From assembly GCA_046563655.1 (NCBI GenBank), contig CM102286.1, forward strand, positions 15,128,001 through 15,192,000: 64,000 bases of DNA, written 5' to 3'. A program made the translations under genes and the position numbers. Of the stretch, positions 63,079-64,000 are shown one piece after another. Source of the DNA: Yuukianura sp. NJ FZ-2021 (taxonomy: Eukaryota). The notes below the pieces were generated by a model that saw only the letters and a list, made by a program, of their open reading frames with translations, ran no database searches and had not been told where the DNA came from. The first letter of the stretch is position 1, and every line of letters starts with the position of its first letter.

Positions 63079-64000
63079 ATGGAGTCGTGGTTGACTGTGG
63101 GAAGAGACGATGGAGAATGTTGGTGTGCGTTGGGATTGGCGCAGTCGCTTGCTGCCTCCGGAACAACCAAAAATACAACCATCTTTACTGGTCAAAATGT
63201 GTCCAACGAAATGAGGTAAATCCGTGCCATATTTTAGTTAAGATTTAAAATTAAGTTAAATTTTTTACGTTCTTTGTGGTGTTAAGATTCCTGCTGGGTC
63301 ATTTCTTTGACCTTGTGCAGCCACTGCCAGCGGAATTCAAGCTGACCTCTGACCTGGCCACTTTCACCCCTTGGACCAAATGTGTCACGTTGGACGCCAA
63401 TTATATCGTAAACCATTTCAATTTAATTTATAAAAACGAAAATTCAAAACTTACCCGCAGTTTTTTGTTGATTAAAGGCACTGGAAAATGTAGATGAACT
63501 TTTTGAAACTTCCCGATCAAAAGATTCTCCGATCGACGCCTCACGTCAAGTTGAAGTGGTGATTTGGAGTCGAGGCGGTTCACGGACGCTTACAAAGTAA
63601 AAGCAGAAATTAAAATTTTCAATTTTTACTTTTTTTACGAAATAAAAGAAGCGTTACCTTTGTAATTCGCAGAGCAAAAACGAAGAAACTTGTTGAAATG
63701 GATTTGAATTTGCTGGGTTCTCTCTGGACTCCAGTGTTCAACGTTCTGTTTCAAATGGACACCGAAGTTCAAAAGTCACTTTTGAAGTCTTGTCCAATCC
63801 CAGCACCAAGTATTCCTCGGAGCTTTGAAAATACTGGCACAAAGGCGGATTTGTCCGAAGCAATTGCAATTGTAGGGATGAGTTGTCGTTTTCCTGGAGC
63901 AAACACGCTGGACGAATACTGGGACATTCTAAAAAACGGAAAACACACAGTGACTCGATTTCCTGTAGGAAGAGCCACTTTTGACATTCCAGGTTAAAAT
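63079..64000 (+). CDS. 5' end of a type I polyketide/fatty-acid synthase with an N-terminal glycogenin/GT8-like domain (3'-truncated by the window)
   Basis: Exons 63079-63215, 63287-63407, 63478-63596, 63673-63992 join in frame. The glycogenin-like part (WLT..DD....ALGLAQSL..SGT, TKCVTLDAN, ENVDELFE) is followed by the KS start [28 protein letters not shown]. Confidence 0.8.

Follow-up and report, generated by a model that had tools for sequence, protein, structure and literature searches.

How might a type I polyketide synthase (PKS) gene of an animal come to open with the first part of a glycogenin? The question is raised by the 3' end of a 64,000-nucleotide stretch of contig CM102286.1 (Yuukianura sp. 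NJ FZ-2021, assembly GCA_046563655.1, positions 15,128,001 to 15,192,000 of the forward strand), which is referred to as the window in the following. A preliminary description had noted at positions 63,079 to 64,000 of the window a glycogenin/GT8-like domain fused in frame to the ketosynthase (KS) of a type I PKS, and had proposed this domain as a pseudo-glycosyltransferase cap that might bind a sugar nucleotide, dimerise the synthase, or prime or glycosylate the product.

Glycogenin is the self-glucosylating primer of glycogen synthesis. Here, we report that the first three exons of the locus descend from a glycogenin, that two of their introns lie where glycogenin genes carry them, and that many of the residues on which a glycogenin depends have been replaced or deleted. 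The reading that we favour, and hold to be probable, is a chimeric gene of a springtail-like hexapod, in which three exons of a glycogenin duplicate are spliced in frame to the first KS exon of a type I PKS and have become a dead leader.

Results and Discussion

A probable PKS reading frame that opens with glycogenin-like exons

The locus comprises four exons on the forward strand (Table 1). Their joined frame is free of stops, with intron phases 2, 0 and 2, as had been described initially and as is borne out at the DNA level. All three introns are of the GTAA..AG type, their six splice-site dinucleotides are intact, and their GC content is 0.24-0.25 versus 0.43-0.51 in the exons. When the bases of exons 1-3 were shuffled, only 19 of 20000 versions kept the 125-codon frame open; five stops are present in each of the other two frames. 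Introns of 70-76 nt are of normal size here, since the homology-mapped RalGAPB exons of the same window are separated by gaps of 68-94 nt (with donors such as GTAAAA, GTGAGA and GTAAGT). This is in good agreement with the earlier assumption of an intron-bearing animal gene. Exon 4 had been drawn up to position 64,000 and needed correction: a TAA stands in frame at 63995-63997, a GT donor is found at 63993, and the exon thus ends at 63992. With a phase-2 intron on either side, exons 2 and 3 add up to 240 nt, which is divisible by three; a transcript that skips the pair would remain in frame, with Met1-Met45 followed directly by the exon preceding the KS.

For comparison, glycogenin genes were taken from metagenome contigs by means of a degenerate pattern for the CVFLDADT motif, which yielded 120 loci and 118 motif-bearing open reading frames (ORFs). 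The 29 ORFs with at least 200 residues that match two simple glycogenin regular expressions were compiled into a profile, while the other 89 were dropped. The metagenome ORFs are true glycogenins, as all six that were tested match PF01501 (E 1e-19 or better); one ORF that was compared with the PDB matches glycogenin-1 with E 2e-107.

The joined protein reaches 44.0 bits against the 29-member profile (E 8.9e-16 at Z=1), in two ungapped segments, residues 1-57 and 71-97, each of which crosses an exon junction without a break. In a control with 2000 residue shuffles and the reversed sequence, the best score was 4.6 bits, as opposed to 44.9 bits for the real first 190 residues. An hhalign comparison of the joined protein with the glycogenins gave a probability of 97.7% and E 1.8e-12. 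The initial statement that the first ~100 residues follow the glycogenin pattern therefore holds far beyond chance.

A check that is independent of the splicing assumption is provided by the single exons, which were compared one at a time with an alignment of 16 glycogenins by hhalign. Exon 1 matches columns 27-71 (E 5.2e-6), with Met1 of the query aligned to the glycogenin initiator (ME.W.T..), exon 2 matches columns 115-128 (E 3.6e-4), and exon 3 matches columns 132-143 (E 2e-4). The three matches are collinear. Exon 4 has no match in this alignment (E 0.55). When the whole window was cut into 3610 six-frame ORF pieces, the ORF of exon 1 was the sole significant glycogenin match (E 1.4e-5), followed by the ORF of exon 2 (E 1.1), with all remaining pieces no better than E 3. 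Among these pieces, no further glycogenin exon appears between exon 4 and the window end, and no paralogues were found within the window.

Exons 1-3 taken singly have no match in Pfam, PF01501 included, and exons 2 and 3 have none in the PDB; single exons are too short for such searches. The PDB matches of exon 1 to fibronectin-type repeats of gelatinases were discarded as chance matches. A motif scan of viral contigs gave no match. Judged by these sequence comparisons, exons 1-3 are derived from a glycogenin of the GT8 family.

Two introns are shared with glycogenin genes

Of 93 glycogenin-like metagenome loci, 50 are uninterrupted, as cDNA would be, and 43 are interrupted. Approximately 39 of the 43 break exactly after the Leu of the DADTL motif, with GT next; the other rows comprise three loci that are ambiguous or missed by the regular expression and one with GC, and several loci are mutual duplicates. 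Intron 2 of the query follows Ile86, which is aligned to this Leu, and thus interrupts the reading frame at the same codon in phase 0, corresponding to the intron behind codon 116 in glycogenin genes. Consistently, 35 out of 100 metagenome ORF matches end at profile positions 116-119.

A similar picture emerges at the upstream boundary. Of the 100 ORFs with at least 30 bits, the match starts at profile position 57/58 in 29 and at positions 52-56 in a further 12. These starts typically show a YAG acceptor, the AG of which begins an Arg codon when it is read through, and a phase-2 intron in codon 58 of glycogenin genes is therefore implied. Intron 1 of the query splits Arg46 (AG/A), which is aligned with profile position 58, likewise in phase 2. 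Both of the two alignable introns hence coincide with glycogenin introns in place and phase. The exon pattern that is frequent in the metagenome loci is 1-58, 58-117 and 117-171. Exon 2 of the query has 121 nt versus 175 nt in the usual glycogenin exon, and the 18-codon difference is accounted for by gaps in the alignment.

In the metagenome loci L011, L026 and L081, the glycogenin genes contain introns of only about 45-60 nt, and one additional intron is located close to profile position 157, where the more common pattern has a single exon (117-171).

Since introns 1 and 2 are shared with glycogenin genes, the front end stems from an intron-bearing glycogenin duplicate of the host. The sequence evidence points to descent from a duplicated host glycogenin gene rather than from a retrocopy or foreign DNA.

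The front end has lost the features of a transferase

The homology to glycogenin ends at residue 97, which corresponds to profile position 127. Residues 98-190 alone show no homology to glycogenin in an hhalign comparison (E 0.29), and a greedy hhalign extension of the alignment to residue 163 was rejected because of its near-zero confidence.

Conservation of 90% or more is found in 41 columns within profile positions 13-130, of which eight owe it to the motif search itself. In the query, 20 of the 41 are kept, and 15 of the 33 unbiased ones. Over the whole aligned part, 40 of 97 residues are equal to the glycogenin consensus.

To name individual positions, we use the numbering of rabbit glycogenin, derived via the PDB glycogenin-1 match of one metagenome ORF. 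In the rabbit enzyme, the residues for UDP, metal, catalysis and acceptor function are Y15, K86, D102/D104, D160/D163, H212 and Y195. More specifically, T11/N12/Y15, K86, R77 and the second Asp of the DxD motif contact UDP and metal, and the part past residue ~117 comprises the NSG loop, the catalytic DGGDQG loop, the His ligand and the acceptor Tyr. At conserved positions, the query carries the substitutions T11R, N12D, Y15E, G18C, S66A, D104N, T105Y and R117T. Further conserved positions, namely D68, R77, G81, K86 and W90, fall into deletions, R77 and K86 into the one of 18 codons. The metal-binding DxD motif is absent, as its second Asp is replaced by Asn; all profile members have this Asp, but the motif search had selected for it. 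The DAN reading and the truncation of the domain, both of which had been suspected initially, are thus confirmed.

Fold elements were assigned from a model of one glycogenin (mean pLDDT 72). According to this model, exon 1 would cover the glycogenin fold from strand 1 through helix 1 and strand 2 into helix 2. The retained part as a whole would run from strand 1 through helix 1, strand 2, helix 2 and strand 3 to strand 4 and the DxD site, followed by a short strand and helix, i.e., the nucleotide-binding half of the GT-A fold. The 18-codon deletion would correspond to a helical insert between retained parts, and everything past the retained part is gone. Of the second GT-A half (NSG loop, DGGDQG loop, HF.G..KPW), no trace was found: there is no alignment beyond profile position 127, and the other pieces of the window give no further match.

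Because the most conserved positions of the family and the second half of the fold are lost, the remnant is most unlikely to work as a transferase or to bind UDP-glucose in the usual way. An active glycosyltransferase was rejected as a candidate, its defining residues being absent. The proposed cap that binds a sugar nucleotide, or primes or glycosylates the product, is not upheld: only ~97 residues are homologous, T11, N12, Y15 and G18 are replaced, R77 and K86 are deleted, and the second half of the fold is absent or unrecognisable.

The ketosynthase start in exon 4

The peptide of exon 4 matches PF00109 at positions 2-40 with E 4.1e-10 and 40.1 bits, compared with a cut-off of 20.8, in good agreement with the canonical KS start described for it. 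When the KS start was compared with the PDB, the best 60 of 70 matches were PKS-type megasynthases and none was named an animal fatty acid synthase (FAS). They comprise trans-AT and cis-AT bacterial modules, Pks13, MAS, LovB and CTB1, with KS domains of bacterial PKS at the top. Over the ~45 residues compared, these matches agree with the earlier impression of a KS that looks more PKS-like than that of animal FAS.

Among proteins of 189-2000 residues, the exon 4 peptide found only bacterial PKS, with 52-70% identity over the KS motif. A 42-residue stretch holding exon 3 found nothing among proteins of 75-2000 residues. A HMMER scan of representative proteins gave 5488 matches; the 150 listed all have 3336-7969 residues and three to six matched stretches each, and thus represent multi-KS proteins.

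Table 1. Features of the chimeric locus at the 3' end of the window.
Feature	Position	Strand	Description
Presumed promoter region, 603 bp	62476..63078	.	Between the ATGs of the divergent minus-strand MDR/PTGR-like reductase gene and of the PKS gene; putative promoter role
Exon 1	63079..63215	+	ATG at 63079; Met1 to first two bases of the Arg46 codon (AG/A); end phase 2; glycogenin-derived
Intron 1	63216..63286	+	71 nt, GTAAAT..TTAAG; phase 2, within the codon aligned to profile position 58
Exon 2	63287..63407	+	121 nt, residues 47-86; end phase 0; glycogenin-derived
DAN in place of DxD	63393-63401	+	D82-A83-N84, in exon 2
Intron 2	63408..63477	+	70 nt, GTAAAC..TAAAG; phase 0, after Ile86
Exon 3	63478..63596	+	119 nt, residues 87-125 plus two bases of Lys126 (AA/A); end phase 2
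First 11 codons of exon 3, ALENVDELFET	63478-63510	+	Glycogenin-like; remainder of exon 3 without detectable relative
Intron 3 (putative)	63597..63672	+	76 nt, GTAAAA..TCGCAG; GC 0.25; junction of glycogenin-derived part and PKS part
Exon 4	63673..63992	+	Residues 127-232; 61 residues without recognised ancestry, including a Pro/Ser-rich stretch, then the KS start
KS N-terminal motif ([13 protein letters not shown])	63857..63973	+	PF00109 positions 2-40

One gene or two

Judged from the sequence around their junction, exons 1-3 and the PKS are likely to constitute a single gene. The 76-nt gap between exons 3 and 4 resembles introns 1 and 2 in length, GC content and GTAA..AG ends, and its best acceptor (TCGCAG/A, 63673) is in phase. 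Several observations weigh against a single chimeric gene. The phase agreement of the join occurs by chance in one of three cases, exon 3 when read through meets a TAA at once, an AATAAA is located at 63641 inside intron 3, and the PKS could start independently at an in-frame ATG (63698) that precedes the KS motif by 53 codons. The end of exon 3 (119 nt, phase 2) has no counterpart among the glycogenin introns seen, where the nearest pattern is a 123-nt exon whose next intron is apparently in phase 0 (loci L081 and L011); the junction with the PKS part would therefore lie in exon 3 or intron 3. Furthermore, no spliced product containing exon 3 or 4 was found in the protein collection (75-2000 and 189-2000 residues), the KS portion inside the window has only ~45 residues, and selection on the remnant is deduced from the open frame only.

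Some of these observations would fit two separate units. Exons 1-3 could then be a short stand-alone gene or the expressed relic of a glycogenin duplicate, which either ends at the TAA right after exon 3 or splices far downstream with the PKS nested in its intron, while the PKS would start at the ATG at 63698. This is suggested by the in-frame stop directly after unspliced exon 3, by the AATAAA and by the position of the ATG, and also by many PKS from the HMMER scan of representatives, which carry the KS motif within their first ~60 residues (e.g., P0116 at 3-41 and P0156 at 3-44); the corresponding position in the joined protein is near residue 188. However, the 98 nt between the stop and the next start codon leave no room for a promoter, and the intervening gap has the length, the GC content and the ends of introns 1 and 2. 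If exon 3 were left unspliced, the product would have 127 residues and be half of a GT-A fold without the core conserved residues, and yet the frame is open to the extent given by the shuffles above. Moreover, other glycogenin-like pieces are absent from the 400 nt downstream. On balance, we regard two units as rather unlikely.

An assembly artefact or a decaying pseudogene, in which a glycogenin fragment is misjoined to a PKS or rots beside it, is very improbable. Nothing specific speaks for it, apart from the fact that the window ends 8 bases past exon 4. Positions 60001-64000 contain no Ns, and the glycogenin part is deeply diverged with in-frame deletions, unlike a normal gene that has been cut by a misjoin. 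The decayed pseudogene was rejected, as both the open 125-codon frame and the intact splice dinucleotides make free decay unlikely.

Another explanation, which corresponds to the pseudo-glycosyltransferase cap proposed initially, concerns the fate of the captured peptide. The glycogenin-derived part could be a selected, folded module with a new job, such as dimerisation of the synthase, docking of a partner, or sensing of nucleotides or nucleotide sugars. This would agree with a frame that is open despite deep divergence, with the 40 of 97 consensus residues kept, among them the hydrophobic core positions in strand 1, helix 1 and strand 4, and with the hydrophobic and then Pro/Ser-rich stretch in exon 4, which from its sequence looks like a domain followed by a linker. 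On the other hand, an open frame is expected in any case, because translation of the PKS must pass through exons 1-3, so that it is no proof of selection on the peptide; T11/N12/Y15, K86, R77 and the second Asp of the DxD motif are all lost, and half of the fold is missing. We therefore consider a folded module with a new job improbable, although a structural role of the leader, e.g., in dimerisation or docking, is conceivable. A related and similarly doubtful proposal goes further and sees a new N-terminal PKS module that is kept across springtail PKS paralogues, with the capture having wired a horizontally acquired synthase into host expression. If true, one could trace here how an animal has domesticated a foreign megasynthase by capturing exons of a housekeeping gene.

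Proposed origin of the chimera

Returning to the chimeric gene with a dead leader, we suggest the following course of events. The host glycogenin gene would have been duplicated, and the 5' part of the duplicate fused to a PKS coding region at a point within intron 3 or close to it. Such a recombination (5'-exon capture) would have provided the PKS with a host promoter, a start codon, and 5' exons with their introns. The captured peptide would then have lost its catalytic features and part of its length, while the captured exons were presumably kept open since translation of the PKS passes through them. The glycogenin part would persist within a non-catalytic N-terminal leader of ~187 residues, composed of 97 glycogenin-derived residues, about 60 residues without known origin and the Pro/Ser-rich stretch before the KS. 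From the features described above, we infer that exons 3 and 4 are spliced together, that a capture took place and that no function remains.

Relation to known systems

With respect to glycogenin (GYG; CAZy GT8, PF01501), residues 1-97 of the query are homologous to residues ~3-117 in rabbit numbering. The likeness extends to the start context ME.W.T, to two intron positions with their phases, and to the motifs KCV.LDA and N.DELF. The query differs by its DAN, the replaced T11/N12/Y15/G18, the deletion of R77/K86, the lack of anything recognisable past residue ~117, and the fusion to a megasynthase.

The host lineage can be judged from a 202-residue exon of RalGAPB in the window, for which 801 matches were found among 1376 candidates and 120 were listed. 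Among the matches listed, Orchesella dallaii (71%), Allacma fusca (71%) and Folsomia candida (70%) have the highest identity, whereas insects reach at most 62%. The window is therefore assigned to a springtail or a near relative of springtails, the proteins of which are absent from the collection. The locus thus resembles springtail type I PKS genes in its host lineage, with Collembola nearest in RalGAPB (70-71%), and in a KS start that looks PKS-like. In the parts of the literature covered here, 30 type I PKS clusters predicted by antiSMASH are reported for F. candida, most genes of which are flagged as horizontally acquired (PMC5490193). One of these PKS, OXA62418.1, is treated as horizontally acquired in a study that, by its own account, covers KS domains only (PMC10764717). 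The same parts of both papers contain no mention of an N-terminal glycogenin-derived region on a springtail PKS. The terms glycogenin and Glyco_transf_8 are absent from the two supplementary files of PMC5490193 that were searched. Full-text literature searches returned no description of a glycogenin or GT8 region on a PKS.

Animal FAS and the arthropod FAS-like PKS (AFPK) normally begin directly with the KS. As far as PMC10764717 is covered here, they resemble the present locus as multi-exon animal genes for a KS-first megasynthase. They differ from it in that ~187 residues precede the KS here, and no animal FAS was among the best 60 of 70 PDB matches.

Chimeric genes that arose by capture of the 5' exons and the promoter of a duplicated host gene are known, e.g., jingwei in Drosophila. 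As in chimeras of the jingwei type, the recipient would have gained a start codon, introns and presumably a promoter, and the donor part would have lost its old function. Unlike those, the recipient in our case is a polyketide megasynthase, and the event is deduced from one locus.

Neighbouring genes

The other ORFs of the window match animal families, namely ligand-gated channels, arrestin, prominin, RalGAPB, ESCO, P450, aldo-keto reductase and ELO. Directly upstream of the PKS and divergent from it lies an MDR-type reductase gene (61100-62476, minus strand) with ADH_N_2 and ADH_zinc_N matches at 61.5-62.1 kb. Its N-terminus reads like that of a prostaglandin reductase or leukotriene B4 dehydrogenase, and its ATG at 62476 is 603 bp away from the ATG of the PKS. 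A promoter region common to the PKS and a possible trans-acting enoyl reductase is conceivable by analogy; LovB/LovC serve for comparison as a PKS with a trans-acting enoyl reductase.

Within 11 kb upstream of the PKS, an aldo-keto reductase gene (~52.3-53.4 kb, minus strand) and a multi-exon cytochrome P450 gene (54.4-56.3 kb, plus strand) were found. This neighbourhood (52300-56330) may be an oxidoreductase-rich surrounding of the PKS or a matter of chance. Between 56.3 and 61 kb, an ORF at 59476-59745 on the minus strand has a zf-CHCC zinc-finger match (E 5e-10); otherwise, several open frames without Pfam match are present. At greater distance, tandem first exons of ELO (fatty-acid elongase) genes are located at ~3.5-3.9 kb and 5.9-6.3 kb (window positions 3538-6294), and tandem dienelactone-hydrolase-like genes at ~11.1-11.9 kb and 12.3-13.1 kb (window positions 11121-13068).

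Implications for springtail polyketide synthases

Type I PKS genes are already known in springtails; dozens have been reported, many of them thought to be horizontally acquired, and unusual natural products are made by these animals. The route from an acquired PKS to an expressed animal gene is poorly documented. At the present locus, a host glycogenin would have supplied a PKS frame with its start codon, ~100 codons and the positions of two introns. An automatic label as a glycosyltransferase would be misleading here, because the remnant lacks the catalytic equipment. For genome mining, such front ends would be overlooked in surveys that are based on KS domains only. Should the transcript be confirmed, the locus would provide a concrete example of the capture of 5' exons and promoter by a megasynthase, and would indicate that a large biosynthetic gene can recruit the first part of a housekeeping gene.

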